Positions 16,124 to 61,425 are shown, numbered from the stretch's first letter. The stretch is 64,000 bases of DNA from an uncultured Bacteroidota bacterium (GCA_903847205.1 CAINDA010000028.1:4603-68602); one strand, 5' to 3'. Notes: generated by a model not told the origin, from the sequence alone. A program made the numbers and translations.

Positions 16124-16867
16124 TTAACGGGCGTATCTTTTAATCAATTCCGACAATTCTGTTTTTACACTTCTGGAAACAGGAATGTCGCAGTCGTCAA
16201 TCATTTCAATAATACCGCTGTCTTTTGCGGGGCTGAATTTTTTAATATATTCCAGATTTATAAGATGAGAATTATGGCAGCGGAAAAAACTTTCGCCTTC
16301 TAAAGAAGCTTCAAGAGATTTTAAATTTTTAGTGACAAGCCGTATTTTATTATCAATGGTATATACCTTTGAATAACTTCCGTATGCTTCTATCCGGATG
16401 ATGTCTTTAATATTAATATACTCCGAACCATTAGTGGTAGGCAGTGTAAGCTTGCCCGATAATGCAGTTTTTAATTTTTCAGTCTGTACCTGAGGAATAC
16501 CCTGCTTCCCAATTTTTTCAGAAATGCGGCTTACAGCATTTATCAGCTCAATGATATTAATAGGTTTTAATAAATAATCAGCTGCGCTTACCTTAAAAGC
16601 TTTAATGGCAAATTGATTATAAGCTGTAACAAATACCACTTCAAATCTTCTGTTTTCGAACTGTTCTACCAGTTCCAATCCTGTCATCTGAGGCATTTCT
16701 ATATCCACAAAAACCAAGTCAGGATTTTTATTTTGAATTTCTTTAATTCCGTCTTTGGCTGAGAGTGCCGTACCAATTATTTCTACTTCTGGGCAGAATT
16801 CTTTCACAGCTATTTCTAAGGCAGTTACAGCATTCTTTTCGTCATCAATTATTACGGCTTTAATCAT
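16124..16867 (-). CDS. LytTR-family response regulator (CheY receiver + LytTR DNA-binding domain)
   Basis: DDE..D receiver motifs (IIDDE, VFVDIEMP, KP) and a C-terminal LytTR-like region. Sits next to a sensor kinase. Confidence 0.85.
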   Translation of the reverse strand: MIKAVIIDDEKNAVTALEIAVKEFCPEVEIIGTALSAKDGIKEIQNKNPDLVFVDIEMPQMTGLELVEQFENRRFEVVFVTAYNQFAIKAFKVSAADYLLKPINIIELINAVSRISEKIGKQGIPQVQTEKLKTALSGKLTLPTTNGSEYINIKDIIRIEAYGSYSKVYTIDNKIRLVTKNLKSLEASLEGESFFRCHNSHLINLEYIKKFSPAKDSGIIEMIDDCDIPVSRSVKTELSELIKRYAR

Positions 16868-16895
16868 AAATTAATAGGTTGATTTGTTAATTGTT

Positions 16896-38576: not shown

Positions 38577-39289
38577 TGCGCTGCCTGGCAATAGATGATG
38601 AAACACTTGCGCTGGATCTGCTTGAAGATAATATCAGGCAGATTCCCTTTTTGCATCTGGTAAAGCGCTGCAAGAATGCTTATGAAGCAATTGAAGTATT
38701 ACAAAAGGAAGAAATTGATTTAATATTTTTGGATATTCAGATGCCCGGAATTACCGGCCTGCAGTTTCTGAAAAGCTTGAAGTCGCCTCCGATGGTGATT
38801 TTTATTACTGCCTATAAAGAACATGCACTTGAAAGTTTTAATTTGGATGTGCTGGATTACCTTGTTAAACCGGTTTCTTTTGAACGTTTTTTGAAAGCAT
38901 CAAATAAAGCTTTGGATTATTATAATTTGAAACAAAAGCTGGTACACACATCGTCGCCAGCTGCTGATTTTATATTTGTAAACGCTGAATATAGTCTTGT
39001 GAAAATTACAATTGCAGACATATCTTATGTAGAAGGATTAAAAGATTATATTAAAATTCACCTTGTAAATGCTGTAAAACCGGTTATTACGAGGATGAGT
39101 TTAAAAGGTATTGAGGAAAAACTGCCATTCGGGAAATTTTTTAGGATACATAAATCGTTTATTATTTCAATTGATAAAATTACTTCCATCCGAAAAAACC
39201 GGCTTTTTATAAAAGAGACAGAACTGCCTCTGAGCGATCTTTACAAAGATAATTTGTATAAAATTATAAGCCCAGAAAATATAATATAA
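38573..39289 (+). CDS. LytTR-family response regulator
   Basis: Receiver motifs (AIDDE, DLIFLDIQMP, KP) and a C-terminal LytTR domain. Overlaps the kinase stop by 4 nt. Confidence 0.85.
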   Translation: MMRCLAIDDETLALDLLEDNIRQIPFLHLVKRCKNAYEAIEVLQKEEIDLIFLDIQMPGITGLQFLKSLKSPPMVIFITAYKEHALESFNLDVLDYLVKPVSFERFLKASNKALDYYNLKQKLVHTSSPAADFIFVNAEYSLVKITIADISYVEGLKDYIKIHLVNAVKPVITRMSLKGIEEKLPFGKFFRIHKSFIISIDKITSIRKNRLFIKETELPLSDLYKDNLYKIISPENII

Positions 39290-42114: not shown

Positions 42115-43272
42115 CTAATAAAATGTTTCTCCCTTTTTAGCCATTGTTTTTAATAACACGCAGGGCCTGTATCGGTCTTCAGAATAGAGATTGTATAAAT
42201 TTTCGAGGATGTCTAATATATTCTGAAGCCCTAATTCATCTGCCCATTTCAATAATCCTTTTGGATAATTTACACCTTTGGTCATTGCCGTATCTATATC
42301 TTCTTTTGATGCCAGCTGAAGATAAAAGGCATCAACAGCTTCATTCATCAGCATTGCAACAACACGGTAAAAAATAGTTTTACCTAATTCTTCATTCTGC
42401 TTAGGCTTTGGCATCACAGAACCTTCGGCATAATTGTAATAACCTTGTCCAGACTTTCGTCCGAACCATTTTGCTTCGTATAAGCGTTTTTGTGTTAATG
42501 AAGGTTTGAAACGCGGCTCGTAAAAAAACTGCGTCCATACACTTTCTGTAACTTTATAATTTATATCGTTTCCAATAAAATCCATGAGTTCAAACGGTCC
42601 CATTTTAAAACCGCCGAATGTTTTCATTGCCCAGTCAATCGTTGCAAAATCTGCAATGCCTTCTTCATAAATGCGGATGGATTCCCCGTAGAATGAACGT
42701 GCAACGCGGTTAACAATAAAGCCTGGAGTATCTTTTGTAAGAACAGTTATTTTGCCCCAACTGTCAATCAACTTTTTTGAATTTACTGTAACCGCTTCAC
42801 CCGTTGTGAGCGCAGGAATAATCTCCACCAAAGGCATTAAAGGAACAGGATTAAAGAAATGAATGCCGATTACACGTGCAGCATTTTTGCATACAGAAGC
42901 AATTGAAGCAATTGATAATGAAGATGTGTTACTTGCTAATATGCAGTTTTCGGAAACAGTGGCTTCTAAATCAACAAACAGTTTTTGCTTTATTTCTAAA
43001 TTTTCAACTACTGCTTCAATAATTAAATCGCAGTTTTTAAATTGGTTTAAATCAGTGGCAAATTGTATTCTTCCGAAAATTTCTTTCGCAGCCTGCTCTG
43101 TGATTTTTTGTTTCTCAGATAATTTTTTTAAGGTGATTTCTAAATTGCCTTTTGCTTTATCAAGCGCTGCTTGATTCGTATCAAATACAATTACCTGATG
43201 CCCTGCAGTTGCTGCTACTTGAGCAATTCCTGCCCCCATTGCGCCAGATCCTATTATTCCTATCATAATCAA
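42115..43272 (-). CDS. 3-hydroxyacyl-CoA dehydrogenase (NAD-binding), PaaH/PaaC-like, with a C-terminal extension
   Basis: GIIGSGAMGAGIAQV Rossmann motif, 3HCDH N and C domains. Located in the paa cluster. Confidence 0.85.
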   Translation of the reverse strand: MIMIGIIGSGAMGAGIAQVAATAGHQVIVFDTNQAALDKAKGNLEITLKKLSEKQKITEQAAKEIFGRIQFATDLNQFKNCDLIIEAVVENLEIKQKLFVDLEATVSENCILASNTSSLSIASIASVCKNAARVIGIHFFNPVPLMPLVEIIPALTTGEAVTVNSKKLIDSWGKITVLTKDTPGFIVNRVARSFYGESIRIYEEGIADFATIDWAMKTFGGFKMGPFELMDFIGNDINYKVTESVWTQFFYEPRFKPSLTQKRLYEAKWFGRKSGQGYYNYAEGSVMPKPKQNEELGKTIFYRVVAMLMNEAVDAFYLQLASKEDIDTAMTKGVNYPKGLLKWADELGLQNILDILENLYNLYSEDRYRPCVLLKTMAKKGETFY

Positions 43273-43371
43273 ATACTAATCTCCCGGAAAGGGAATGATG
43301 GTTTTAATTAATAAATTTTGCATAAACTATTACATCCTGAATATCCCTCTTCCTAAGAGAAGTGAGGAATT

Positions 43372-44151
43372 CTACTCTCCTTTAAAAACAGGTTTTCTCT
43401 TTTCAAAAAAAGCACTCACGCCTTCATTGTAATCGTAAGTCTGCGCTGCGCGCACCTGCATATCAGCTTCACATTCCAGCTGCTCGCTTAACGTATTATT
43501 CAATGAATTGTTTAACATGCGTTTGGTAAAACCTAAAGCTTTGGTTGGCAGGTCTGCAAGTGTTTTTGCAATGACCATTGCTTCAGTGTGGAGCATATCA
43601 TCGGCAGCTGTTTTATAAATCATACCCATTTTTTCAGCATCAGCTGCGGAAACTTTATCACCTAACATCATCAATGCAGAAGCCTTTCCAAAGCCCACCA
43701 GACGGGGGAGAAAGAAGCTTCCGCCGTTATCGGGAACGAGACCTATTTTACTAAATGCTTGAATGAAAGCGACTGAGCTGGCTGCAATTACAATGTCACA
43801 TGCTAAAGCTATGTTTGCTCCAGCTCCGGCAGCAACTCCGTTAACGGCGCAGATAACGGGTTTTTCGATGGCACGTATTTTTAGAACAATCGGATTGTAA
43901 TGCTCACGGACAATGCGTTCAATGCCTGGGCCGCTTTTATCTAAAGCTTCAGATAAATCCTGCCCAGCACAAAATGCTTTTCCTTCACCCGTAAGATAAA
44001 CAGCGCGGATTGTTTTATCCGAGGCGGCTCTGTCTAATGCATCCTGAAGCAGCAATGCCATTTCGCGGTTAAAGCTGTTGAATTTATCAGGGCGGTTAAG
44101 CGTAATTTTTAAAACGCTTCCATCAGTTTCTGTTTTAATAAATGCTGACAT
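43372..44151 (-). CDS. Enoyl-CoA hydratase/isomerase (crotonase) family, PaaG/PaaF-like
   Basis: 259 aa. An oxyanion-hole AFCAGQDL motif. Paa-cluster context. Confidence 0.85.
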   Translation of the reverse strand: MSAFIKTETDGSVLKITLNRPDKFNSFNREMALLLQDALDRAASDKTIRAVYLTGEGKAFCAGQDLSEALDKSGPGIERIVREHYNPIVLKIRAIEKPVICAVNGVAAGAGANIALACDIVIAASSVAFIQAFSKIGLVPDNGGSFFLPRLVGFGKASALMMLGDKVSAADAEKMGMIYKTAADDMLHTEAMVIAKTLADLPTKALGFTKRMLNNSLNNTLSEQLECEADMQVRAAQTYDYNEGVSAFFEKRKPVFKGE

Positions 44152-44247
44152 AATTTATGGATTGATTTGGATTCAAATATAATCTTTTGGGAACAAAGCC
44201 AAATGTACAAACTTTGTAATTCATCTATGAATGAGAACAATTATTCA

Positions 44248-44739
44248 TCAAATACATTTAAAATAATCGAAAGGTTCTTTGCAGTCCAGACAGCGGTATA
44301 AGGCTTTACAAGCTGTGGAACCGAACTGCGAAATCATTTCTGTGTTTTTTGATCCGCACTGAGGGCATTTTAATTCGCGGGATTTTCCCATCAATACTCC
44401 TTTATCAATGGAGCTGTGATCTGGAGGTGCGATACCGTATGCACGCAGTTTTTCTTTTGCCGCATCGCTTATCCAGTCAGTTGTCCAGGCGGGTGAATAA
44501 ACTAATTCAATTTTTACATTGGTTATTCCGATTTCTTTGAGTTTGATTTTAATATCATCTTCAATTACTTTCATTGCCGGGCAGCCACTGTAAGTAGGCG
44601 TAATTACAATGGTACAAAGAGAGCCGTCCCATTTTACATCCTGCAGAATGCCTAATTCAATAATATTTATGACAGGTATTTCCGGGTCAGGAATTTCAGA
44701 AAGAAGATTGAATATTTGATCTTTGGTATGTAAGGCCAT
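44248..44739 (-). CDS. paaD: Phenylacetate-CoA oxygenase subunit PaaD (PaaJ in the older nomenclature)
   Basis: 163 aa. N-terminal SUF/Mrp-like domain and a C-terminal CPQCGS..C..C zinc ribbon. Follows paaC. Confidence 0.8.
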   Translation of the reverse strand: MALHTKDQIFNLLSEIPDPEIPVINIIELGILQDVKWDGSLCTIVITPTYSGCPAMKVIEDDIKIKLKEIGITNVKIELVYSPAWTTDWISDAAKEKLRAYGIAPPDHSSIDKGVLMGKSRELKCPQCGSKNTEMISQFGSTACKALYRCLDCKEPFDYFKCI

Positions 44740-44902
44740 TTGTAAATATATCTTAACCCAATTTTAATATTACTATTTTCAGACAGAGCCTGAAATGCTT
44801 AGTTTCGCTTTGTTAAAGCAAGACCTGTCAGGTTTTTAAAACCTGACAGGTCTATTACCCAAAAAAATATTTCTATTCTTTACAAACTGGCTTTTGCCGA
44901 TT

Positions 44903-45661
44903 TTACCAATTGGCATTAGGATAAGATCTTGGTATATACTGCATTTCGGCGAGCAGAAAACCTAAATGTTCACTGTGTCTGCCTTCTCTGCTGCCTTTTT
45001 GTTTAATGTTAGCGGCGGGAATCTCCAGCTTCGCTTCAGAAATTACTTCTCTCACACGTTTTTCCCAGGCTTCTTTTACTTTATTTAAATCAACAGCAAT
45101 GCCTTCATTAATCAATATTGCATCAACTTCATTCATATCAAATAAATCAGGAGTATACATCCACAAATCATTTAGTGCAGTCTGCATCCTCTTATGACTT
45201 TCTTCTGTACCATCGCCTAAGCGGTACATCCATTCGGTTGTGTGACGCAGGTGATAGGTAATTTCTTTATGTGATTTAACTGCAATGGCGGCAATGGTTT
45301 CATCCTTGCTTGTTTTTAATTCTTCGTATAAAAAGAAAGTATAAACATCATATAAGAACTGGCGGGCAATGGTAACAGCATAATCGCCGTTAGGCTGCTC
45401 TGTTAATAATAAATTGCGGTATTCCCGTTCGCTGCGTAAATACGCCAAATCATCTTCTGTACGGCCTTTCCCTTCCACCTGTGCAGCATAAGTTAATAGT
45501 GCTGATGCGTTGCCGACAAAATCCAAAGCGATATTTATCAATGCAATATCTTCTTCCAGAATGGGGCCGTGTCCGCACCATTCAGAAAGCCGGTGGCCTA
45601 TTATCAAACTGCTATCGCCTAAGCGGAGAAGGTATTCAAATTTTGCTTCTTGTAAATTCAT
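44903..45661 (-). CDS. paaC: 1,2-phenylacetyl-CoA epoxidase subunit PaaC
   Basis: 252 aa with a ferritin-like fold. Gene order paaB-paaC-paaD. Confidence 0.8.
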   Translation of the reverse strand: MNLQEAKFEYLLRLGDSSLIIGHRLSEWCGHGPILEEDIALINIALDFVGNASALLTYAAQVEGKGRTEDDLAYLRSEREYRNLLLTEQPNGDYAVTIARQFLYDVYTFFLYEELKTSKDETIAAIAVKSHKEITYHLRHTTEWMYRLGDGTEESHKRMQTALNDLWMYTPDLFDMNEVDAILINEGIAVDLNKVKEAWEKRVREVISEAKLEIPAANIKQKGSREGRHSEHLGFLLAEMQYIPRSYPNANW

Positions 45662-45752
45662 TTTTTTAAAGTATTATGTATTTAGTATTATGTATTATGA
45701 ACCGGGTATTCTATTATCTTAATACTCCGTACTTAGTACTTAATACTTTCAA

Positions 45753-46040
45753 CTATAAATATTTCACCCCTTCCGGGATTTTATAAAATGTCGGGTGGCG
45801 GTAAGGTTTATCATTTGCCGGTTCAAAAAATGCACCCTGATCTTCGGGGCTTGATGCCGATATTGCTGCAGCAGGAACTACCCAGATGCTTATTCCTTCG
45901 CTTCTGCGCGTATATACATCGCGTGCATTCTGCATTGCCATTTCCGCATCAGGAGCATGAACGCTTCCTACATGTTTGTGCGGTATTCCGGGATTCCCTT
46001 GTACAAATACTTCCCATAAAGGCCATTGTGTATCACTCAT
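45753..46040 (-). CDS. paaB: 1,2-phenylacetyl-CoA epoxidase subunit PaaB
   Basis: 95 aa. Conserved WPLWEVF..HVGSVHA..A motif. Confidence 0.85.
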   Translation of the reverse strand: MSDTQWPLWEVFVQGNPGIPHKHVGSVHAPDAEMAMQNARDVYTRRSEGISIWVVPAAAISASSPEDQGAFFEPANDKPYRHPTFYKIPEGVKYL

Positions 46041-46092
46041 AATTAAACTTTTTTAATAATTATTTTTGAAGATTATATATGTTTTGTATGTT

Positions 46093-46707
46093 TTATTTTA
46101 TTTCATTTTGCTTCATCATCGAAGCAATTATTTTTTCATTGTCATGACTGCTTTTTTCAAATGCCGAAATTATCCGCTGCTTTTCAGTTTCTTTTTTGTC
46201 CTGGCTTAATTTTTTCGTTGCTTGAATATCGGTTATTGTAATTTGAAATGCCGTAATTCCTTTTAACATTTTTGTTTTATAATCCATTGGAAGTTTATCC
46301 CATTGAGTTTTGTATTCTTTTTCAAAATTGTTAATCATACTTTCCAAAACAGCAAATGATTCTTTTTGTTCAGTAATTATTCTCCCTTTCCCGTAAACAT
46401 GCACTGCCATGTAATTCCAGGTGGGAACATTTATTTCGCTGTCGTAGTATTGGGGAGAAATATAGGCATGGGGCTCTGTGAAAACTACTAATACATTATT
46501 GTTTGTTATCTGCTTCCACTGCGGATTAGCTTTTGCAAAATGCGAAGTCAAAATAATTTCGTTTTCAGTTTCTGTAACAACAAAAGGTAAATGCGATGCA
46601 GTTTGAAAATTATCTTTTACTGTTATAATTGATGCAAAGCTGTATGTCCTGATGAAATTTAAAATTTCTTTTTTATCCGCTGCTAAATAATCTTTAGGAA
46701 TATACAT
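46093..46707 (-). CDS. PaiB-family FMN-binding putative transcriptional regulator
   Basis: MYIPKDY...EILNFIR..SFA.IIT.......ASHLPF closely matches the B. subtilis PaiB N-terminus. Confidence 0.75.
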   Translation of the reverse strand: MYIPKDYLAADKKEILNFIRTYSFASIITVKDNFQTASHLPFVVTETENEIILTSHFAKANPQWKQITNNNVLVVFTEPHAYISPQYYDSEINVPTWNYMAVHVYGKGRIITEQKESFAVLESMINNFEKEYKTQWDKLPMDYKTKMLKGITAFQITITDIQATKKLSQDKKETEKQRIISAFEKSSHDNEKIIASMMKQNEIK

Positions 46708-46808
46708 TACCAGATAATTTTTATTTTTTTAATTGTTAAACCGTAGTATAAACAGTCTTATTCTTGAATGATAAAAGATAATTATAAAATCGAAAAAAAA
46801 TTTTGATT

Positions 46809-47375
46809 CTAATTTTCCGCCAATGGTTTTGCGGGCAGATTAATTTCAAATGCTTCCCATTTGTGTGCCCCTCCATTCCAGAAATATTGGATCGATTTTC
46901 CGCCGTTGGTATCATAAACTAAATAATATCCTTTGCCGTCATTTGAATCGTAATAACTTTTCATCATAACTTCTCCTGTTGCGCCCGGCAGAGGGGTTTC
47001 AGGTAAGTTAATTTCGAATGCATCATATTTATGAGCACCGCCGTTCCAGGAATACTGGATAGATTTTCCAGTTTTTGTATCCCAGGCTATGTAATATGAT
47101 TTACCGTCGTTGTGATCAAAATATACATCAAACATTATATTACCCAGCGCCCCTGCAACTGGTTTTTCCGGAATATTAATTTTAAAAGATTCCCATTTGT
47201 GTTCGCCGCCGTTCCAGCTGTATTGAATCGACTTTCCTGTTTTAATATCCCATGAAATGTAATAGGCTTTTTTATCGTTGATATCATAAAAGGATGTCAT
47301 CCGGATATTATTTTGGGCTTTAATGCAGGTGCTGCTGAGAATGATGAAGAATAATATAAGTTTTAAAATTTTCAT
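46809..47375 (-). CDS. Secreted hypothetical protein made of three tandem ~58-aa repeats
   Basis: Signal peptide. Three repeats of YY(I/L).(W/Y)D.KTGKSIQY.WNGG.HKW..F.INLPE.P. Confidence 0.55.
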   Translation of the reverse strand: MKILKLILFFIILSSTCIKAQNNIRMTSFYDINDKKAYYISWDIKTGKSIQYSWNGGEHKWESFKINIPEKPVAGALGNIMFDVYFDHNDGKSYYIAWDTKTGKSIQYSWNGGAHKYDAFEINLPETPLPGATGEVMMKSYYDSNDGKGYYLVYDTNGGKSIQYFWNGGAHKWEAFEINLPAKPLAEN

Positions 47376-47428
47376 ATTTAATTTGTTTTTTGTGATTTAT
47401 TATAAAAGAATTTATAATACGTCTTCTC

Positions 47429-48370
47429 TTATGCCATAGCTTTTTCCTTTGCCTGCTTTGCTGCATACGCAGTTGCAGCCTCGCGCACCCATTGTCCCTT
47501 TTTGTCGGCTTCTACTCGTGCTTTCAGTCTTATTGCATTGCATACTCCATTGCCTTTGATGACTTCAAAAAATTCTTCCCAGTTAATTGGGCCGTGTTCA
47601 TAGTGGCCGGTCTTCTCATTAAATTTCATTGCAGGATCAGGTACTTTAAGTCCGATGAAATCAGCCTGCGGAACAGTGCGGTCAATAAAGCGTTCCCGGA
47701 TTGCATCATTGCTTTCCATCTTCACTTTCCATCGCATCAGCTGTTCACTGTTCGGCGATTGATCGTCGCTTGGACCGAGCATCATTATAGAAGGCCACCA
47801 CCAGCGGTTAAACGCATCCTGAGCCATTTCTTTCTGCTCTGGCGTACCTTGTGCAAGGTGCATCATTATTTCATATCCCTGACGGTTGTGAAAACTTTCT
47901 TCTTTGCAGATACGCACCATTGCACGGGAGTAGGGGCCGTAAGAACCGCGTGCCAATGCAGTCTGGTTCATTATGGCTGCGCCGTCCACTAACCAGCCTA
48001 TTGCGCCGATATCAGCCCATGTAAGAGTCGGATAATTAAAAATGCTTGAATATTTTGCCTTGCCGGAATGCAATTGTTCTAACAGCTCTTTGCGGTCAAT
48101 ACCAAGGGTTTCAGCAGCACTGTATAAGTACAAACCATGCCCGCCTTCATCCTGAACCTTTGCCAATAAAATTGCTTTTCTGCGAAGGCTTGGAGCACGT
48201 GTAATCCAATTGCCTTCGGGAAGCATCCCTACAATTTCTGAATGAGCGTGCTGACTCATCATTCTAATCAATTGTTTGCGGTATGCTTCGGGCATCCAAT
48301 CTTTGGGTTCTATTTTCTGACCTGCAGCAATTTTTGCTTCAAATTGTTCCAGCTGTTTCGACTCTTCCAT
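47429..48370 (-). CDS. paaA: 1,2-phenylacetyl-CoA epoxidase catalytic subunit PaaA
   Basis: 313 aa. Di-iron ferritin-like ligand motifs (..E..GH.. x2). Confidence 0.85.
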
Positions 48371-48473: not shown

Positions 48474-50771
48474 ATGAAAAGTATTAGAAAAATATACTGC
48501 CTCTGTTTTTTTAATACAGCTGTATTGATGATTATCAACGGCGCAGCAACAGCTCAAATTAAAAACTTGCTTGTAAACAGTTACGATAATATTGTAAAAC
48601 TGAACTTCGAAACAGCATCTCCTTCTCTCACTTATACCGGCATTAATCATGGGTTTGAAGCTGTTTCTCATGCTGAAGACGGCTTAGGAAATATTTTATT
48701 TTTTGTGAATGCTGATGGAGTGTATAATGCTCATAATGTTTTAATGCCCGGCTCCGGAAAAATTTATGCGAATTCATCTGCCACTGAAATCGATATCTGC
48801 CCCTTTCCGGATAATCCGAATAAATTTTATATTTTTTATAATGCTGAACTCTGTTCCAGCTTATACTACAGCGTGGTTGATATGAAATTAGATCATGGAC
48901 TCGGCGATGTGGTGAGCTTAAATACTGAAATAGATTCAGCAAATGTTTCAGAAGGACTTGAAGTTATTAAACGCCCCTGCCGCAATAGTTATTGGCTGCT
49001 GGCCTATGTGTGTGATATAGGTTTTAAGAGATATTTAATTGATGAAAAAGGTGTTTCTGAAGGAACAATTATTTATGATTATTCCGGTCCGGAAATTTTT
49101 GTGGGACGCGGTGAACTGGATTATAACAATGGCAGAATGGGAATGTCGTTTGCTAACAGCCCCATCTCTACTGCCTTTGTATGTGATTTTGATGCGTCTT
49201 CAGGAATTATTACTAATCCTAAAACAATCATCCTGCCTGATGGAGGGCAAGGGCTTTACGGAATGGAATTTTCGCCTGACGGATCAAAAGCATACATGTC
49301 TAACTGGTATGAAAACAAAAAAGATAATTTATTTCAGTATGATTTTGCGACAGAAAAAATCAATTCATTTTTTATTACTTCAACACCTGCCGATAAAATT
49401 GAAGCTGTAACAGGGCCGGGACAGATTGAATTAGGTACTGATGGGAAATTATATATCCCGTTTGATAAGGGAAATCAAATTACTGTTGTAAGTAATCCGA
49501 ATTCCCTGACTCCGGAGTTTTCGAAAATTACTACTACTTCTAAATTAGCTTTAGGGGTTTCTGACCATATTCAATCGGAAATGTATAAGACACAGAATAA
49601 TTTTACATTCAGCCATGTTTGCCTAGGTGAAACAACTAATTTTATTTCTAAAGCTTCTGAATGTTCTGATCATCTTCCAAAAGTAATATGGAATTTCGGC
49701 GATAATGCCAGCGGAAAGAAAAACACTTCAACAGCTTTAAGCCCTTCTCATTATTACGCTTCAGCTGGTGATTATAAAGTAAATTTGTATTTAACAGATT
49801 CAATCGGCACCGATACTATTTCTCATATTGTTTCAATCTCAGCACATCCAAAAGTAAATCTTGGAAATGACACATCCATATGCAAAGGGATGACAATTGT
49901 ATTAAATCCGCACACAGCGGCTTCCAGTTTCAGCTGGTCCACTTCTGAATACCAGCCGAAAATTAAAGTTTATGATGCAGGAAAGTATTGGGTAAATGCT
50001 GCTAATAAAGGATGTTCAAGCTCCGATACAATCCTGATTAAAGCAAGACCGTTACCTGTTGTTAATATCGGACCGGATTTATATCTCTGCGATAGTCTGC
50101 CGCAGACATTAGATGCAGGGCCGGATTTTAAATCATATATATGGTCAACTGGAGAAAAAACTCAGAGCATAAACGCTCCCGGGATTAAATACTGGGTTTC
50201 GGTTTCAAATGGGCTGTGCTGGGCTTCCGACAGCATTGAAATAACATATCAGGCGGTGCCAAAGGTATATCTGGGGAAAGATATTATCCTTTGCGGAAAT
50301 GATTCGGCAGTATTGAATGCAGGTAATATAGGTGCTGAATTTTTGTGGTCAACAGGCGATACTTCCCGTATTATAAAAGTGAATAGAACCGGAACATATT
50401 ATGTTACTGCAAACAACGGCTTATGCACTTTTTCAGATACCGTAAATGTGATTAACCGCGGTTTTATTCCAGTAATTAAAGTTCCGAATAAATTTAAAAT
50501 CGACAGCAGCAACGTTAATCCTTCATTAAAAATTATCACTGAAAATTTAAAATACTTTCATATTAAAATACTTAACACCGCAGGTAAATTGGTGTATGAA
50601 TCACTCGACTTGGCAAAAGGCTGGAATGGTAAAACGCTTGATTCAAAGAAAGCCGCAGACGGCATCTATCATTATACAATTGAATACAATACTCCTTGTA
50701 AAGATGAGAAAGAGATAAAGAAAGGCGTGTTTACTTTAGCGAGAGAAGTGATTGAAAATCAAAAAAAATAA
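48474..50771 (+). CDS. T9SS type-B (CHU_C / gliding-motility-associated C-terminal) sorting-domain protein with a PKD domain
   Basis: Signal peptide. PKD-like WNFGD..S....SHYY..G.Y.V.L. Repeated LG.D..(I/L)C Ig-like modules. C-terminal IPN.F....NVNP.L.I..E.L.Y....I.N..G.LVYES.D..KGWNG......A.DG.Y.Y. Confidence 0.75.
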   Translation: MKSIRKIYCLCFFNTAVLMIINGAATAQIKNLLVNSYDNIVKLNFETASPSLTYTGINHGFEAVSHAEDGLGNILFFVNADGVYNAHNVLMPGSGKIYANSSATEIDICPFPDNPNKFYIFYNAELCSSLYYSVVDMKLDHGLGDVVSLNTEIDSANVSEGLEVIKRPCRNSYWLLAYVCDIGFKRYLIDEKGVSEGTIIYDYSGPEIFVGRGELDYNNGRMGMSFANSPISTAFVCDFDASSGIITNPKTIILPDGGQGLYGMEFSPDGSKAYMSNWYENKKDNLFQYDFATEKINSFFITSTPADKIEAVTGPGQIELGTDGKLYIPFDKGNQITVVSNPNSLTPEFSKITTTSKLALGVSDHIQSEMYKTQNNFTFSHVCLGETTNFISKASECSDHLPKVIWNFGDNASGKKNTSTALSPSHYYASAGDYKVNLYLTDSIGTDTISHIVSISAHPKVNLGNDTSICKGMTIVLNPHTAASSFSWSTSEYQPKIKVYDAGKYWVNAANKGCSSSDTILIKARPLPVVNIGPDLYLCDSLPQTLDAGPDFKSYIWSTGEKTQSINAPGIKYWVSVSNGLCWASDSIEITYQAVPKVYLGKDIILCGNDSAVLNAGNIGAEFLWSTGDTSRIIKVNRTGTYYVTANNGLCTFSDTVNVINRGFIPVIKVPNKFKIDSSNVNPSLKIITENLKYFHIKILNTAGKLVYESLDLAKGWNGKTLDSKKAADGIYHYTIEYNTPCKDEKEIKKGVFTLAREVIENQKK

Positions 50772-50802
50772 AAATAGTTTTGAGGTCTGTTTTAATATTT
50801 TC

Positions 50803-50893
50803 CGATAAAGCTGCCCGCATATTTCGACCGGCTCAATATGACAGCACGCGGTCAGTCTGAGCTTGTCGAAGACTGTGCGTTGGAGACAGCAAT
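50803..50893. repeat. Dispersed intergenic repeat family 2, copy A (modules in M2-M1 order)
   Basis: aagctgcccgcatatttcgaccggctcaatatgacagcacgc + ggtcagtctgagcttgtcgaagactgtgcgt. The matching copy is at 61541-61618. Confidence 0.7.
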
Positions 50894-50921
50894 GTTTTTT
50901 TATAAAATCTAAACAGACTCC

Positions 50922-52100
50922 TTAAATTGATACTAAGTTTTCCTTTTGATTTACACCTGCGGTTCCATTATCCATAATTATTTTCCAGCTGTCCCATTGT
51001 ATCTTAAACCAGATTAGAACAACTGGTAATGCCTTTATTTTATAGGGTTCAAAAAATTCCTGGCGGATGAAACGCGGGATTAAATCTGTAGGTGCAAATT
51101 CACAGAATATAATTAAGAAAATAAATAATCCAGTATTTACTTTTGAGGATGGTGCATTAAAAAACCATATTACTGCGCCGGTTACAGCTACTATATACGT
51201 TGCCGATTCTGCCATTTGATTGAAGGCGCATAAAAAAGTAAGCACCGAACAGATTAACAGCCCCTGCAATTTTAATTTTATTTCTTCTGATTTAAACATT
51301 CCAGGAAGTATGGGAGCGCATACTATCAGCAGGGCAGGGACTTGTATTATTAAATCATTAAACTGCAGTCCAAACCAGGAGCGGAGAATTCCCATGAATG
51401 AAAACGGAACTGAATAAGCTGCAATGGAAGAAAATTCGCTTTTATATAAAGCGGCTAATTCGGGAATTGAAATAAAAATTAAAGGCAGCGCCATGAAACC
51501 TATAAAGCTTAATGCTGATGCACTGATGAAGGCAGGTTTTCTTTTTGCCATAAAGAATAATGCCGCTGCTGCGAAGCCGTATATTTTTATAAATAAATTG
51601 AGCATACATAATACTGCCGCCCAGGCTTCTTTTTTATAAATAAAACATGCGTAAGAAAACAGCATGACTGCCGTAACCAAAGCATTTATTTGTATGTTCT
51701 GAATGGATGTTACTAATTCGGGAAGTATAGAAAGCAATATCAAAGAGCCTTTGCGCTCATCGTTTTTGAAAACATATTTAAGCGCATAAAACAGCGCTGC
51801 CGAATTTATAATGTTCCATATTAAAACACCTACGGATACAGGCATAAATGAGAATGGCGCTGCAAGTATTGCAAATGAAGGACTGTAGCGGTAGAGATCG
51901 TAATATAAATCGGGATGGAGGAGATAAGGGTTCTGGTGATGACGCAGTAAATCGAAAGAATCAACGAAGATTAAATAGTTATTATATTTTCCTAAAATAA
52001 TTTTCGGAATTGTAGCTCCTATTGTTACTATCAGATACAGCCAGAATAATGTTTTATAATTAAAACCAATGCGCTGTTTCAGGGAATTCAAAAAACTCAT
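50922..52100 (-). CDS. DUF2029/GT87-like polytopic membrane glycosyltransferase (GT-C type)
   Basis: 392 aa, about 10 TM helices. Conserved N-terminal region typical of DUF2029 membrane mannosyl/glycosyl-transferases. Translationally coupled to the GT2 gene (4-nt gap). Confidence 0.55.
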   Translation of the reverse strand: MSFLNSLKQRIGFNYKTLFWLYLIVTIGATIPKIILGKYNNYLIFVDSFDLLRHHQNPYLLHPDLYYDLYRYSPSFAILAAPFSFMPVSVGVLIWNIINSAALFYALKYVFKNDERKGSLILLSILPELVTSIQNIQINALVTAVMLFSYACFIYKKEAWAAVLCMLNLFIKIYGFAAAALFFMAKRKPAFISASALSFIGFMALPLIFISIPELAALYKSEFSSIAAYSVPFSFMGILRSWFGLQFNDLIIQVPALLIVCAPILPGMFKSEEIKLKLQGLLICSVLTFLCAFNQMAESATYIVAVTGAVIWFFNAPSSKVNTGLFIFLIIFCEFAPTDLIPRFIRQEFFEPYKIKALPVVLIWFKIQWDSWKIIMDNGTAGVNQKENLVSI

Positions 52101-52103
52101 TGC

Positions 52104-52856
52104 TTAATTAATTTTATAATAACCTTTTATGCGGCGGATAAATATTTTTATTAAACTTCCGAATAAATTGAAGGAGTCAGATATAAAAGCTACAGTAGTT
52201 GTTTCCTGGTCGTATTTAAAATTAACGGGCATTCCTTTTATCGACAGGTTGTTTGCACGCACCATCACCAGCAGTTCTAAATCAAAACTAAAATCATTCT
52301 GCTGCGATTTAAATAACAAAGGTTTTATATCATCAACAAAAAACATTTTTAATCCTGCCTGATTATCTTCTATGCCCGGTATCAATAATATCTGCGCAAG
52401 CTTGTTGTAGATACGGCTGCTTAAATGCCTTGTAAATATATATCTGAAAAAAGAAGGAGGTATTAAATACCGAGAATCGGGATGAACACGGTTTGCGATA
52501 AGCAGTTCTTTGGCTGAAATGTTTTTGTAAAAGAAATCGATGTTGGATAAATCGTAAGCTAAATCGGGGTCGGTAAAAACCATGAGCTCGGTGGGGCATA
52601 CCGCTATTGCATGTTTTATTGTTCCGCCTTTACCTAAGTTGTGTTCGTTTTTTAAAACTGTATATCTTGCTTTATTCGGCGATGCTGCAGCTGTTTCGTT
52701 GAGTATGGCAAGCGTGTTATCGGTTCCGCCGTCTTCGATAAATAGTACCTGCACATGCTCTCTGCTGTTTAAATAAGCATCAATAACTGCAAATGATTCT
52801 CGTATAAATGAACTTGAATTATAGCAGGGGAAAACGATGGTTAATTTAGGAGCCAT
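52104..52856 (-). CDS. GT2-family glycosyltransferase, polyprenyl-phosphate sugar synthase-like (ArnC/DPM1/GtrB-like)
   Basis: LTIVFPCYN..S......I......EVIFVEDGGTD, a DxD (DPD) motif. 250 aa. Confidence 0.75.
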   Translation of the reverse strand: MAPKLTIVFPCYNSSSFIRESFAVIDAYLNSREHVQVLFIEDGGTDNTLAILNETAAASPNKARYTVLKNEHNLGKGGTIKHAIAVCPTELMVFTDPDLAYDLSNIDFFYKNISAKELLIANRVHPDSRYLIPPSFFRYIFTRHLSSRIYNKLAQILLIPGIEDNQAGLKMFFVDDIKPLLFKSQQNDFSFDLELLVMVRANNLSIKGMPVNFKYDQETTTVAFISDSFNLFGSLIKIFIRRIKGYYKIN

Positions 52857-53628
52857 AAATTTTAGTAAGCGGTACTATTCGGGCGTTAAGATAGATAAAA
52901 TCTTTCAATTCTGATAAAACCTGCATCTCATTTACTCGCTGTTTATTGTAACTGTCAGCAAAATCGACGCTGGTTGTTTCGTAACCGGGATGCACAATCC
53001 ATAAAGCTTTTGTTACATTATTTGCATGCAGAAACTGGAACTGTTTTTTAAGTTTTTCGGAGGTAAAGTTTTCTCCCATTATATTTAAGCCGAATACGGG
53101 AAGCTCATTTTTTAAGGAAGACGCCGAATTATTAAACAGCCATTTTTTTATTCCCCCGTCAGGAGAAATTTCTCTGCCTAAGCGCACATAAGGTATGTTG
53201 TGCTGCTTCGCGAATTCGTTTAACAAGCCTGCAACCTTGGGTATAATATGTATGTGCTGGTGTGTATCAATATGTGTAATAGGCCGGCTGTATGTCCGTT
53301 TTAGCTGATTATACTGCGCTTCAAGTTCTTTTTCGAGCGTGCTGAGCTTTAGTTTTTTGAAATAAAACTGCTGTGCTATTTTAAAAGGACTGTTTAAAAA
53401 GGGCGTGAAATTATTTTTTGTGCTTGCCAGATTAAAATGAAGTCCCACTGATATGTTTTCCTTTTCGGAAAGTAATTTCATGCGGGCATCATCTGCATTC
53501 TGCACCATTACACTGGTTGATGAAACCAAACCCTGCTTCATCATTTCTAAAATACCATCGGAAATAGGTGTGCTGAAACCGTAATCATCGGCATTGATGC
53601 ATAAATCTATTTTGCTGAGGGTATTCAT
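52846..53628 (-). CDS. YdjC/ChbG/HpnK-family carbohydrate deacetylase
   Basis: ADDYGFS..I..GI..L...G.V.STS.M metal-binding N-terminal motif. Overlaps the GT2 start by 11 nt. Confidence 0.75.
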   Translation of the reverse strand: MNTLSKIDLCINADDYGFSTPISDGILEMMKQGLVSSTSVMVQNADDARMKLLSEKENISVGLHFNLASTKNNFTPFLNSPFKIAQQFYFKKLKLSTLEKELEAQYNQLKRTYSRPITHIDTHQHIHIIPKVAGLLNEFAKQHNIPYVRLGREISPDGGIKKWLFNNSASSLKNELPVFGLNIMGENFTSEKLKKQFQFLHANNVTKALWIVHPGYETTSVDFADSYNKQRVNEMQVLSELKDFIYLNARIVPLTKIYGS

Positions 53629-53699
53629 TCGGGCAAAAATAAGGGTTTTTATTTTGCTGTGTATTTTAATGTGTTAGATTGCAGACGGATTTTCTGGAT

Positions 53700-53800
53700 G
53701 TGTTATGCGCAGTTAATCTTTACAAATGACAGAAAGTATCTGTGTTCCTGCTAAGTCTAAACCTCCCGCTCACTCGGCGCGGCCTGCCTGTTTCAGCAGG
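53700..53800. repeat. Dispersed intergenic repeat family 1, copy a (partial)
   Basis: ttatgcgcag..tctttacaaatgacagaaag..ctcactcggcgcg shares motifs with the copies at 54969-55060 and 56880-57050. Confidence 0.5.
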
Positions 53801-53850
53801 AATTATTTTTTCTATTTATATTTCTATAAATTTTCTATCTTCGCTGGTAT

Positions 53851-54948
53851 ATGAAAACAAATCAAATTCAGGAATTTTACCAGCTGCTTAAAAGCGACAA
53901 TCTTTCATTTATATATCAAGGTGATTTTAGCGACGGTATTACCGACAAAATAATTGCCCTGAGCGAATACAGTCTTGAAGACAAACATGAAATGGGAGAA
54001 ATAAGGAGAAAAGTTTCTTTTGTTATTATAGAGTGTTTTCAAAACATTGTAAGACATGGAAATGACGCCCGGAATAAATCCAACAGAACAGTAACATCTC
54101 CAGGCCTATTTTCTACTAGAAATACGAAAGACTGTATTTATATTGCTTCGGCTAATTTGATTGAAAAAGAAAATGTTGCTCAACTGACGGAAAAACTCGA
54201 AAGCCTGAACAAATTGAATAAAGAACAAAAGAAAGATCTGCATATTGATATTTTGAAAAATGGCAAACTTTCGGATAAAGGCGGTGCTGGCCTTGGATTT
54301 ATTGAGATGGCAAGAAAATCTGAGAACCCGCTGGAATTTACTTTTGAGAATGAGAATGATAAACTTTCGTTATTTTACCTGATGTTGAAAATGCATAGTA
54401 AAGGTGTGGTAAGCGAAAAATACGTTTCGATGCAAAGCGTAATTGAATCGTACGATTTAATGCGGAAAGAAAATATATTAATGATTTACAAAGGGGATTT
54501 TTCGCAGGAAACTGTTATTCCTATGCTTAAAATGGTTGAACATAATTTAAACAAGCATAAAGAAGGGCTTCATTTTACAAAGAAAATAGTGCTGGTGCTT
54601 ATTGAAATGCTGCAAAATATATCGAAACATGCTATTGAACTGAATGGTAAAAGAGATTCGATATTTATGATTGGTAAAAACAACAATAAATACATTATTT
54701 GTACCGGCAATATGGTTGACTCTGCTTCTTCAGAAAAATTAAAAACTAAAATAGATGCAGTTAACAATTTGAACCCGGAAGACTTGGTTGTTTTATACAA
54801 GAAGAAATTGAAAGAAAACGCATCCACTGAAAGGGGAGCCGGGCTGGGGATAATAGATATTGCCAGAGAAAGCACTGAAAAAATAGTATTCGATTTACAG
54901 CCGGTAGAAGGCGGGTTGCAATTTTTTTCATTATGTGTTCAAATATGA
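53851..54948 (+). CDS. Protein made of two tandem SiaB/RsbW-like GHKL ATPase (anti-sigma-factor-type Ser kinase-like) halves
   Basis: Each ~180-aa half has I(Y/K)GDFS, an N-box-like E.FQNIVRHG / EMLQNISKHA, and a G2-box GGAGLGFIEMARKS / ERGAGLGIIDIARES. Confidence 0.5.
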   Translation: MKTNQIQEFYQLLKSDNLSFIYQGDFSDGITDKIIALSEYSLEDKHEMGEIRRKVSFVIIECFQNIVRHGNDARNKSNRTVTSPGLFSTRNTKDCIYIASANLIEKENVAQLTEKLESLNKLNKEQKKDLHIDILKNGKLSDKGGAGLGFIEMARKSENPLEFTFENENDKLSLFYLMLKMHSKGVVSEKYVSMQSVIESYDLMRKENILMIYKGDFSQETVIPMLKMVEHNLNKHKEGLHFTKKIVLVLIEMLQNISKHAIELNGKRDSIFMIGKNNNKYIICTGNMVDSASSEKLKTKIDAVNNLNPEDLVVLYKKKLKENASTERGAGLGIIDIARESTEKIVFDLQPVEGGLQFFSLCVQI

Positions 54949-59694: not shown

Positions 59695-61425
59695 ATGAAA
59701 AAACATATACTCTTATCAGCTTTAGCATTTTTAACTTTTATAACTATTGAATGCCATGCACAGCTGCCAACCGGCAGTATAGCTCCCGATTGGACTTTTA
59801 CTGACATAAACGGTGTAAGTCATCATTTGTATGCCGATTTAGATGCAGGTAAAACTGTTTATCTTGATTTATCAACTACATGGTGTGCCGGATGCTGGGA
59901 TTGGCATACGAGCGGTTATATTGAAACACTCTGGCAGAATCACGGCCCTATTGGTCAGCCAGGGGTTAGCCCGAGTTCAACAAATGATATTCTTTTTTAT
60001 CTGATGGAATGCGACGGCTCAAATAATTATGCCTGCCTTATAGGCGATAATGTTAATTGTACAAATGTTTACAATGAAGCAAGCATGGGCAATTGGGTTA
60101 CAGGAACCAATTATCCGATAATTGATCCGCCGTCGCCTGCCATTGATGTATTCAATACTAATTACCAGAGCGGCAGTTACCCTACAATTTTTGTGATTTG
60201 TCCCGACCGCTCCTTAACAAACTATTGGAATAATGCTCCGCCGGATATGTATCAGGCTGCAACCTGCGCCACTGCTTCAGCAGGAGCCGATGCCCGTATG
60301 AGAGTAATGGATTTATTTCCGCCCCTGCTCGAATCCTGCGACAGCGTTATACCGGCATTTCATATTTCAAATAATGGAAGCAGTACGTTAACCTCGGCCA
60401 ATATTGCCTTTAAAGTGGATGGTATAACTCAAAAAAATTATCATTGGACAGGCAGCCTTCCCACTTATCACGATGCATTAATCAGCGGCATCAAAGTAGG
60501 TTCATCAGTGCCGGGCCATCATACTGCTTCAGTTGTAGTTTCCAGCCCCAACGGACTCACTGACCCTACACCATCAAACAATACTGCAGCACTGTCATTT
60601 AATATTTATCCTTCCGTTGGCCCGCTGGTTTCAGAATCATTCGAAGCTTCCGGAATACCATCTTCCTGGACTATCGGCAATGGCGGACATGCGCCAACCT
60701 GGACAACAGGTTCTGTAGGCTATAATTCTTCGAAATCTGCTTTTTTAAATTGGAACGACAGCATTCCTGATATGTATGAAGTAGATTTGTTTAATATTAA
60801 AGCGCAGTCGTTTGCCAATGCAGGTTCTGCTTCATTAACGTTTGATGTTGCTTATTGCGAAAGCTTTTATCAATATAATCTTGCAGAATTAGATGTTGAA
60901 ATTTCTACCGACTGCGGTATTACATGGCTATCAAAATATGCGAAAATCGGCAATGCTTTGGCCACAAAGCCCTATAGCAACAACCCTTTTGTCCCTGCAT
61001 CTGCAGCAGATTGGAGACATGAAACAGTAAATTTAACATCCGCTGCCGGGCAGTCGCATGTGTTAATTCGCTTTAAAGCAACTTCAGCTAACGGCAATAA
61101 TTTATATATCGATAATATTAATGTAACCGCTGCAGTTACCACAGGCATTGAAGAAGCAGGAAGGATTAATACAATAAATGTTTATCCTAATCCGATAACA
61201 AATAATGCAACTATTGATTTTAACTTAGTTAAAGATGCTGATAATGTATCAATTTTGCTGGTGAATGAACTTGGCCAGGAAGTATTAAATAAAAATCTCG
61301 GGCATTTAAGTTCAGGAGAACAAAATTATAATCTTAATGTTTCCGCATTAAATAATGGATTGTATTTATTGAAAATTAAAACCGGCGAAAATATAATCAC
61401 CAAAAAAGTATTTATAGATAAATAA
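59695..61425 (+). CDS. T9SS-secreted protein with an N-terminal thioredoxin-fold (CxxC) domain and a C-terminal Por secretion tail
   Basis: Signal peptide. DWTFTDINGVSHHLYADLDAGKTVYLDLSTTWCAGCW is a redoxin-like motif. C-terminal VYPNP..N.ATIDF......V.I.LVN.LGQEV......GLYLLKIKTG is a T9SS CTD. Confidence 0.7.
   Translation: MKKHILLSALAFLTFITIECHAQLPTGSIAPDWTFTDINGVSHHLYADLDAGKTVYLDLSTTWCAGCWDWHTSGYIETLWQNHGPIGQPGVSPSSTNDILFYLMECDGSNNYACLIGDNVNCTNVYNEASMGNWVTGTNYPIIDPPSPAIDVFNTNYQSGSYPTIFVICPDRSLTNYWNNAPPDMYQAATCATASAGADARMRVMDLFPPLLESCDSVIPAFHISNNGSSTLTSANIAFKVDGITQKNYHWTGSLPTYHDALISGIKVGSSVPGHHTASVVVSSPNGLTDPTPSNNTAALSFNIYPSVGPLVSESFEASGIPSSWTIGNGGHAPTWTTGSVGYNSSKSAFLNWNDSIPDMYEVDLFNIKAQSFANAGSASLTFDVAYCESFYQYNLAELDVEISTDCGITWLSKYAKIGNALATKPYSNNPFVPASAADWRHETVNLTSAAGQSHVLIRFKATSANGNNLYIDNINVTAAVTTGIEEAGRINTINVYPNPITNNATIDFNLVKDADNVSILLVNELGQEVLNKNLGHLSSGEQNYNLNVSALNNGLYLLKIKTGENIITKKVFIDK

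Follow-up and report, generated by a model that had tools for sequence, protein, structure and literature searches.

A three-gene YdjC–GT2–GT87 operon of an uncultured Bacteroidota bacterium as a candidate module for aminosugar decoration of the cell envelope

A genomic stretch of 64,000 nt from an uncultured Bacteroidota bacterium (GCA_903847205.1 CAINDA010000028.1:4603-68602; the whole stretch is called the window) carries an operon of three consecutive open reading frames (ORFs) on the - strand, running from 53628 down to 50922. They encode a YdjC-type deacetylase, a family 2 glycosyltransferase (GT2) and a polytopic family 87 glycosyltransferase (GT87). One operon thus holds a carrier GT2, a de-N-acylase and a membrane glycosyltransferase of the GT-C class, as in the Lgm, Nax and Arn systems. 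The best explanation, held at about even confidence, is that the operon is a self-contained module decorating an envelope molecule with a de-N-acetylated hexosamine (glucosamine, GlcN, or galactosamine, GalN) via a polyprenyl-phosphate carrier. The general scheme is already known from NaxD, Lgm and Arn, and the trio is judged to be an uncharacterised variant of it. Shown are the assignments to families and folds and the genomic associations; the sugar, the acceptor and the catalytic activity are predictions. New features are GT87 as the proposed terminal transferase, the recurrence of exactly these three genes across phyla and a canonical catalytic Asp that seems to have been lost. The three genes are as follows.

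53628..52846, - strand: gene 1, de-N-acetylase of the YdjC/ChbG-HpnK family, 260 aa (Pfam PF04794)
52856..52104, - strand: gene 2, GT2 of the DPMS/GtrB/ArnC type, 250 aa (Pfam PF00535)
52100..50922, - strand: gene 3, polytopic GT87 (former DUF2029) protein with a PimE-like GT-C fold, 392 aa (Pfam PF09594)

All three family assignments of a preliminary description of this DNA (YdjC, GT2, DUF2029) are correct, each match lying above its Pfam gathering score. Its gene spacing was right for the first pair, which overlap by 11 nt (52856..52846, letters ATGGCTCCTAA), and needs correction for the second, where 3 nt (52103..52101), not 4, separate the GT2 stop codon from the start of GT87. The start codons of all three genes are consistent with the N-termini of homologues. 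The 11-nt overlap here, together with 4-nt overlaps in two other Bacteroidota loci (L009 and L011), suggests translational coupling.

The proposed pathway has four steps. First, the soluble, peripheral GT2 would transfer N-acetylhexosamine (HexNAc) from UDP-HexNAc to undecaprenyl phosphate (Und-P) at the cytoplasmic face, as its fold and gene fusions suggest. Second, the cytoplasmic YdjC enzyme would strip the N-acetyl group to give polyprenyl-phosphate-linked hexosamine (polyprenyl-P-HexN), like NaxD of Francisella, a step predicted from family chemistry, fusions and topology. Third, an unlinked flippase encoded outside the operon would move the carrier-linked sugar to the periplasmic face. 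Fourth, GT87 would bind polyprenyl-P-HexN via Y72, Q137, K172 and W312 and transfer the aminosugar to an acceptor, which might be a glycolipid, part of the lipopolysaccharide (LPS; core or lipid A) or a different envelope glycan; the chemistry of GT87 may be atypical, since an Asn appears to occupy the site of the canonical catalytic residue, an Asp. Topology would constrain the order of these steps, since GT2 and YdjC are soluble proteins of the cytoplasm and the active site of the GT-C enzyme is predicted to face the periplasm. The same order had been put forward in the preliminary description, and it is now backed by the GT2 fold and profile, by fusions, by the cross-phylum trio and by a related module in Chryseobacterium.

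The GT2 groups with enzymes that load sugars onto lipid carriers. It matches PF00535 at E=1.4e-15, above the gathering score. A profile built from 27 subfamily members and searched against PDB sequences returns GtrB (5ekp), archaeal DPMS (5mlz) and ArnC (9hwj, 9bhc, 8vxh) as its top 7 matches (E ~1e-18). Alignments to DPMS and ArnC reach positions 189-213, past the nucleotide-binding half, and that to DPMS spans 2-213. A profile was required for this result, a single-sequence PDB search being uninformative and returning N-terminal GT-A regions only. The AlphaFold model (pLDDT 91.9) agrees: ArnC, DPMS and GtrB account for all of its top 16 PDB matches, aligned over ~245-260 columns and so over essentially the whole protein, with ArnC as the top match and a TMq of 0.75 and rmsd of 2.8 against 5mlz. 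The opposite outcome named in the preliminary description, a cytosolic non-polyprenyl glycosyltransferase by structure, is not what the nearest folds (ArnC, DPMS, GtrB) indicate. Residues D42, D96-x-D98, R143-H-x-x-x-R148 and D164-x-Q-A-G-L-K170 are invariant in the subfamily.

The GT2 is not an equivalog of any of the characterised enzymes searched for. It scores 17.8 bits against a cut-off of 529 for ArnC (NF007986) and 14.5 against 370 for PpgS (NF058614), and an NCBIfam search finds no HpnI match at E<=0.1. The hydropathy scan shows no true transmembrane (TM) helix, only a marginal amphipathic stretch at 222-240. C-terminal TM helices are present in GtrB, ArnC and archaeal DPMS and absent in PpgS and human DPM1; the trio GT2 is in this respect like the latter two. 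From the modelled fold and the profile, gene 2 is concluded to encode a probable peripheral polyprenyl-phosphate sugar synthase. Fusions of its subfamily to YdjC and GT-C domains point to UDP-HexNAc as the putative donor and polyprenyl phosphate as the putative acceptor.

These fusions are a recurrent feature of the GT2 subfamily. At E<=1e-30, a full-library hidden Markov model (HMM) search with the GT2 profile retrieves 4,854 cluster representatives. Nine of the 150 best are GT2-YdjC fusions (P0265, P0290, P0293, P0296, P0301, P0313, P0321, P0330, P0378), which argues that YdjC acts on the GT2 product. Another six of these 150, ~850-900 aa long, are fusions to the GT-C domain PMT_2 (P0311, P0314, P0318, P0324, P0359, P0413), which argues that the subfamily feeds a lipid-carrier-dependent GT-C enzyme.

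Other members of the subfamily are fused to S-adenosylmethionine-dependent methyltransferase domains or to a second GT2 (P0306, P0382; P0287, P0316, P0364). Such varied fusions suggest a wider family of carrier-sugar tailoring modules. On a contig of a Deltaproteobacteria metagenome-assembled genome (MAG; L094, 3113-6742), the gene for a GT2-YdjC fusion overlaps the terminal part of a gene for an MMPL protein (RND-type lipid transporter), which recalls HpnN beside hopanoid genes; the contig ends inside the fusion gene, so that a GT-C gene further downstream would lie out of view.

The deacetylase is a well-preserved member of its family. It matches PF04794 over residues 9-239 (E=8.6e-42, 144.2 bits vs a gathering cut-off of 29.7), and its best solved relative among PDB sequences is the chitooligosaccharide deacetylase 7vi8 (E=2e-16). 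The motifs ADDYG (D14/D15), GLH (H63) and H119-x-D-x-H-x-H-x-H127 align with 7vi8 and 2i5i. In ChbG/YdjC enzymes, the catalytic base and metal ligands are an N-terminal Asp-Asp pair plus a His cluster. ADD[FY]G, G-L-H, H-x-D-x-H-x-H-x-H (119-127) and HPG are kept in all trio YdjC proteins and in the fusion protein. A hydropathy scan finds no signal peptide or TM segment, there being no hydrophobic segment in the protein. Because the catalytic motifs are all kept and a signal peptide is absent, the enzyme is placed in the cytoplasm, acting before the carrier is flipped. Its likeness to NaxD and LgmC consists of superfamily membership and association with a GT2 of the polyprenyl-phosphate type.

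Could the three genes be unrelated, or serve catabolism, with a ChbG-like chitobiose deacetylase next to two housekeeping transferases? The best NCBIfam and PDB matches of the YdjC protein are indeed chitin-disaccharide and chitooligosaccharide deacetylases. Its score against the ChbG equivalog (NCBIfam NF002559) is however 109.1 bits vs a cut-off of 227, and no chb, phosphotransferase system (PTS) or chitinase genes are adjacent to the trio. The trio is moreover kept across phyla and YdjC is repeatedly fused to GT2; these conserved fusions argue strongly against a catabolic role, which is hardly credible.

A parallel with hopanoid glucosaminylation, drawn in the preliminary description, has turned out to be weak. 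HpnI and HpnK resemble the trio in that a GT2 makes a product on which a deacetylase of the YdjC family then acts. They differ in having no GT-C component, and the fold of the trio GT2 is of the DPMS/ArnC type. Besides the missing HpnI match, the YdjC protein scores 63 bits against the HpnK cut-off of 232.6 (TIGR03473), with only residues 9-154 aligned, and neither hpn nor other hopanoid genes are seen in the window.

A truncated allele of the deacetylase gene exists. In a sibling contig of the same organism (L008, 2193-2195), a T-to-A change turns TTG (Leu241; window 52906-52908) into TAG. The same stop allele occurs as P0121 on 3 contigs, including one NCBI assembly. It cuts YdjC to 240 aa and removes the overlap with GT2, and the 20 lost residues lie outside the Pfam domain. 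When metagenomes were scanned with the YdjC protein, just 2 loci of close similarity came up.

The trio recurs outside the window. Four other Bacteroidota loci (L009, GCA_016195025.1; L011; L092; L097) carry it in the same order, with 4-nt or 11-nt overlaps and with different flanks. A Planctomycetota MAG of 71% GC (L100) has the order GT87-GT2-YdjC, and a 62%-GC MAG (L101) has GT2-YdjC with a convergent GT87 gene. Recurrence in such unrelated contexts (L009, L011, L092, L097, L100, L101) means that the three genes do not lie together by chance. Across the loci, identity to the proteins of the window is 34-55% for GT2, 24-48% for YdjC and 25-51% for GT87; in L100 and L101 it is 34-35%, 24-26% and 25-29%, respectively. 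The three proteins have diverged together across trio loci. Comparison of three homologue searches suggests further instances of the trio.

Chryseobacterium has a related module. Its GT87 homologue (33% identity) lies beside his genes in a conserved four-gene cluster (L001-L003, 6001-9977) that encodes GT87, an ArnC/PgfS-like GT2, a deacetylase of carbohydrate esterase family 4 (CE4; weakly ArnD-like) and a GT4. This GT2 has 309 aa and two TM helices and matches ArnC and PgfS over its full length. In a further locus (L033, 7055-9032), a CE4 gene lies directly upstream of GT87. A GT87 clade is thus paired with a carrier GT2 and with two unrelated de-N-acylase families, as expected if the GT-C enzyme uses a de-N-acylated, carrier-linked aminosugar. 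These organisms are cultivable, and the module might serve as an entry point for experiments.

The GT-C component is PimE-like. The protein matches PF09594 at E=5.8e-18 (65.9 bits vs a cut-off of 25). Its AlphaFold model (pLDDT 84, pTM 0.86) has ~12 membrane helices plus juxtamembrane helices and the hydropathy scan shows 8-9 strong peaks, so that the 10 TM segments counted in the preliminary description are an approximation. The best PDB folds for the model are PimE (9dm7/9dm5; TM-score 0.67-0.71), then PIGU, ALG6 and glycosylphosphatidylinositol (GPI) mannosyltransferase I (GPI-MT-I). ArnT (5ezm) reaches a TM-score of 0.40 (E=0.054) and PglB also ~0.40, in line with the earlier remark that DUF2029 is not the usual ArnT family. 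A GT87 family profile searched against PDB finds GPI mannosyltransferase 1 as its best match (E=4e-7) and PimE at E=1.7e-3. No PMT_2/ArnT match (PF13231, PF02366) occurs at E<=0.1, and the PimE equivalog (NCBIfam NF009915) is not reached (14.4 bits vs 413). A single-sequence PDB search with the GT87 protein produced a spurious FliP match.

Residues for binding the donor phosphate are conserved. In the HMM alignment, the invariant GT87 residues Y72, Q137, N139 and K172 correspond to PimE Y92, Q163, N165 and K195; the PimE chain index agrees with the published numbering, because PimE K195 falls on the invariant K172. W312 corresponds to PimE W319 by spacing only. In PimE, Y92, Q163 and K195 are essential and belong to a group tied to the donor phosphate (PMC12041525). 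As their counterparts Y72, Q137 and K172 are kept, the polyprenyl-phosphate site of GT87 appears intact.

The catalytic position looks different. The canonical catalytic Asp lies at the tip of the first juxtamembrane helix (JM1) and is D58 in PimE, equivalent to Gpi14 D39 (DxD motif), ALG6 D69, ArnT D55 and PglB D56. By sequence register, GT87 appears to have an invariant N41 (motif N-N-Y-x-I-F) at this position. The GPI-MT-I segment D-Y-F-V-F aligns to N41-Y-L-I-F45 with low posterior probability. The spacing between D58 and D85 in PimE, 27 residues, equals that between N41 and D68, and the JM1 helix of the GT87 model comprises residues 40-53. N41 is invariant in all GT87 relatives examined, including those from other phyla, and so is D68; other invariant polar residues in loops or membrane are E128, Q137, N139, K172, E298 and D339. 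D68 lies four residues before the phosphate-binding Tyr and, speculatively, might be a substitute base or a ligand of the sugar amine. A profile of the GT87 N-terminus alone, made for the PimE D58 region, gave spurious CspZ matches only.

An Asn at this site raises the possibility that GT87 is not catalytic and, like PIGU, binds, flips or hands over polyprenyl-P-HexN, with another enzyme performing the transfer. PIGU, a non-catalytic protein in which DxD is replaced by SSW, is a top structural match, the operon otherwise has no flippase, and N41 is invariant at the inferred catalytic position, where the PimE change D58N abolishes activity (PMC12041525). Against this, the donor-phosphate ligands and D68, E128, Q137, N139, K172, E298 and D339 are invariant, a pattern like that of an active site, and the equation of N41 with PimE D58 rests on sequence register. 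Nor do we know of any protein of the GT-C fold that acts as a flippase. A non-catalytic GT87 is very unlikely.

Deacetylation might instead occur on the acceptor side, following the logic of GPI and phosphatidylinositol mannoside (PIM) synthesis. The GT2 would then put GlcNAc on a non-carrier lipid (e.g. a phospholipid, ceramide, inositol lipid or hopanoid), YdjC would, in the manner of PIG-L or HpnK, turn it into a GlcN-lipid on the cytoplasmic side, and after flipping GT87 would add a hexose from a housekeeping polyprenyl-phosphate-mannose or -glucose to give Hex-GlcN-lipid. Much of the evidence is compatible with such a route. The best PDB match of the GT87 profile, GPI mannosyltransferase I (E=4e-7), mannosylates GlcN-(acyl)PI; PimE and PIGU are among the top structural matches; and the GT87 and GT50 members characterised so far all transfer mannose to glycolipids. 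The topology, with deacetylation in the cytoplasm and a GT-C step in the periplasm after it, suits this route equally, and GT2-YdjC fusions are equally compatible. One fusion gene adjoins a gene for an MMPL lipid transporter (L094), and the Chryseobacterium cluster includes a GT4, the family of PimA, PIG-A, MshA and BshA.

What speaks against acceptor-side deacetylation comes mainly from gene 2. Its profile and fold are nearest to enzymes whose acceptor is polyprenyl or dolichyl phosphate, and its subfamily is repeatedly fused to GT-C domains, as a donor synthase would be. HpnI is not matched and the HpnK score is far under the cut-off. An extra, unlinked polyprenyl-phosphate-hexose synthase would also be required, whereas donor-side deacetylation requires a flippase only. 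The acceptor-side route is considered unlikely. A bolder form, in which the trio is the bacterial counterpart of early GPI/PIM synthesis with a non-canonical GT-C active site (Asn for Asp), is a long shot. If true, diderms (Bacteroidota, Planctomycetota and others) would make GlcN-containing glycolipid anchors. The step order, the GT-C enzyme and the DPM1-type synthase would then be common with the eukaryotic GPI route, and the deacetylase would differ (YdjC in place of the LmbE-type PIG-L).

Within the preferred reading, donor-side synthesis of a carrier-linked aminosugar, the acceptor could specifically be a lipid A phosphate, which would make the trio an analogue of LgmABC or FlmF2/NaxD/FlmK. 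The surface would then be less negatively charged and the cell resistant to polymyxin and cationic peptides. The trio shares its enzymatic roles with the Lgm, Nax and Arn systems, the Chryseobacterium analogue has ArnC-like and weakly ArnD-like enzymes, and an Asn in place of the base might be tolerable if the nucleophile were an already ionised phosphate. The GT-C enzyme, however, stands outside the ArnT/PMT_2 family (no PF13231 match, ArnT TM-score 0.40), and its characterised relatives PimE and GPI-MT-I act on hydroxyl groups of glycolipid sugars rather than on phosphates of lipid A. Neither in the window nor in the other trio loci examined are lpx, ept or further LPS genes found near the trio. 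Characterised Bacteroidota lipid A is already under-phosphorylated, leaving less need for such a modification. Lipid A phosphate as the acceptor is quite unlikely.

Several observations weigh against the aminosugar-module reading as a whole. All trio carriers seen are uncultured MAGs or metagenome contigs. The three-gene operon has no flippase gene, and the donor nucleotide sugar of the GT2 is not readable from sequence. The catalytic Asp of GT87 appears to be replaced by Asn (N41), and to our knowledge mannose is the sugar transferred by every GT87 or GT50 enzyme characterised. The alignments behind the structural models are shallow, with 19 and 27 sequences. Finally, the association is not family-wide. 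In GTDB species-representative genomes, at least 585 confirmed stretches contain a GT87 family member. Of 80 GTDB loci retrieved with a GT87 profile (31-40% identity), most have no adjacent YdjC or trio-subfamily GT2; phmmer and custom HMMs detected no YdjC in them and no neighbouring GT2 of that subfamily, and the adjoining genes vary widely. This indicates that the GT-C enzyme is dedicated to an aminosugar donor in some clades only, and a general assignment of Bacteroidota GT87 proteins to such modules was rejected.

GT87 keeps other company in several of the retrieved loci. It adjoins a different GT2 and a Wzy_C gene in P0014, L007 and L013. A reading of the L007/L013 GT2 as a WaaE-like LPS-core enzyme was rejected: it has no NCBIfam support, and the protein belongs to a different subfamily, 17-18% identical. 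In two Hymenobacter loci GT87 adjoins an ArnC-like GT2, and in the P0025 loci a GT87 homologue directly adjoins an LPG_synthase_TM gene (L004-L006, 7141-8226). LPG_synthase_TM proteins (window 23362-24369; the P0025 loci; L099 2010-3059) are candidates for the missing carrier-sugar flippase. The window protein of this type (PF03706, related to the MprF flippase domain) is encoded on the - strand, 27 kb from the trio. In L099 (GCA_030841465.1, 1-11630), a trio-type GT2 without YdjC lies next to LPG_synthase_TM in a cluster that also encodes a GT2-GtrA fusion, a GT-C of the TMEM260 family, an unannotated protein of 600 aa and a spermine-synthase-like one of 988 aa. This looks like another uncharacterised lipid-carrier glycosylation locus.

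Comparison with known systems places the trio among several pathways of related logic. The same enzymatic roles are found in FlmF2/NaxD/FlmK of Francisella and LgmA/LgmC/LgmB of Bordetella, which add GalN or GlcN to lipid A and in which a GT2 makes Und-P-HexNAc, a YdjC-superfamily deacetylase acts on it and a periplasmic GT-C follows (PMC11279074, PMC4993483). NaxD deacetylates Und-P-GalNAc (PMC11279074), and lgmA, lgmB and lgmC are needed for GlcN on Bordetella lipid A (PMC4993483). The deacetylases of these systems and of the trio belong to the same Pfam family. The differences lie in the GT-C enzyme (ArnT-like there, GT87/PimE-like in the trio), in the GT2, which in the trio lacks the two C-terminal TM helices of ArnC-type enzymes, and in the hosts, which for the trio are Bacteroidota, Planctomycetota and other phyla.

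The Arn pathway for 4-amino-4-deoxy-L-arabinose (L-Ara4N) in E. coli and Salmonella (ArnC-ArnD-ArnT with ArnE/F) has the same order of GT2, de-N-acylation, flipping and GT-C transfer. Its deacylase ArnD is a CE4 enzyme, unlike the YdjC of the trio; the GT-C families differ too, and the trio operon has no ArnE/F-like flippase. The Chryseobacterium variant, with an ArnC-like GT2 and CE4, is nearer to Arn than the window trio is.

Arabinogalactan of M. tuberculosis receives GalN through PpgS and Rv3779, in a pathway whose deacetylase is unidentified (PMC9671496). There a short, TM-less GT2 (PpgS, Rv3631) makes polyprenyl-P-GalNAc, deacetylation follows, and Rv3779 acts as a GT-C on an envelope glycan rather than on lipid A (PMC9671496). 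The trio GT2 is short and soluble like PpgS; unlike in the mycobacterial pathway, the deacetylase is encoded in the operon.

PimE with Ppm1, and GPI-MT-I (PIG-M/Gpi14, GT50) with DPM1, depend, as the trio would, on a donor synthase of the DPM1-type GT2. The GPI pathway likewise de-N-acetylates GlcNAc before flipping, using the LmbE-family deacetylase PIG-L in place of YdjC. PimE and GPI-MT-I transfer mannose to glycolipid hydroxyls with an Asp base, where the trio GT87 has an apparent invariant Asn. The trio also has no Pbn1-like partner, unlike GPI-MT-I.

In Proteobacteria and mycobacteria, decoration with lipid-carrier aminosugars is an established way to an altered surface charge, to resistance against peptides and polymyxin and to immune evasion. 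The trio would carry this scheme to Bacteroidota, Planctomycetota and other phyla, with GT87 as the GT-C enzyme. It would offer a testable function for a DUF2029 clade and for a GT2 subfamily of thousands of cluster representatives, and it suggests the YdjC type as the kind of candidate to consider for the deacetylase of the mycobacterial GalN pathway. A GT-C enzyme working with Asn at the catalytic Asp position also poses a mechanistic question. In the literature searched, no paper connects DUF2029/GT87 to YdjC, only 2 papers mention DUF2029, almost nothing is said of it outside mycobacteria, and no GT87 member outside Actinobacteria is characterised. A paper on a Bacteroides 'carbohydrate deacetylase' proved irrelevant, the enzyme being a CE4 protein.

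The surroundings of the operon, from the ORF map, are as follows.

53851-54948, + strand: divergent neighbour with two DUF6272 domains, 365 aa, sharing the 222-bp region with the trio
53629..53850: intergenic, presumed promoter region of 222 bp between gene 1 and the divergent DUF6272 gene
50772..50921: spacer of 150 bp from the gene 3 end to the convergent gene, marking the operon end
48474-50771, + strand: convergent gene for a PKD/CHU_C protein secreted by the type IX secretion system (T9SS; ORF map and domain search)

Regulatory signals are sparse. The letters TATTTTTG (53641..53634, - strand), 6 nt before the gene 1 ATG, match the Bacteroidota -7 box TAnnTTTG by eye and offer a weak candidate for that box. 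A sigma-70 promoter scan of 50600-54000 does not rise above the shuffled background, sigma-70 being a model unsuited to Bacteroidota, and no convincing intrinsic terminator appears in a scan of the same interval. Rfam and tRNA scans of the window give no matches. The trio has the same GC content as the surrounding sequence (36-38% in the window). Because the DUF6272 gene, the paa cluster and the convergent gene for T9SS cargo do not accompany the trio elsewhere, they were rejected as parts of the system.

Downstream of the convergent T9SS gene, a phenylacetate-CoA oxygenase-type cluster (42115-48370, -), unrelated to the trio, encodes PaaA/PaaC-like, PaaD-like and FMN_bind_2 proteins, an enoyl-CoA hydratase and a 3-hydroxyacyl-CoA dehydrogenase. 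At 11287-15957, 48474-50771 and 59695-61425 there are genes for T9SS cargo carrying a CHU_C or Por_Secre_tail domain; these, the GC content of 36-38% and the source names of homologues mark the host as a Bacteroidota MAG. The first of the cargo genes (-) encodes a protein of 1556 aa with PKD_5, Ig_7, fn3 and Por_Secre_tail domains, in a stretch whose GC is 0.43-0.45 vs ~0.36 elsewhere. A His_kinase (PF06580) sensor is paired with a LytTR response regulator in two separate places, 16124-19187 (-) and 37539-39289 (+), and one of the two sensors has long TPR arrays.

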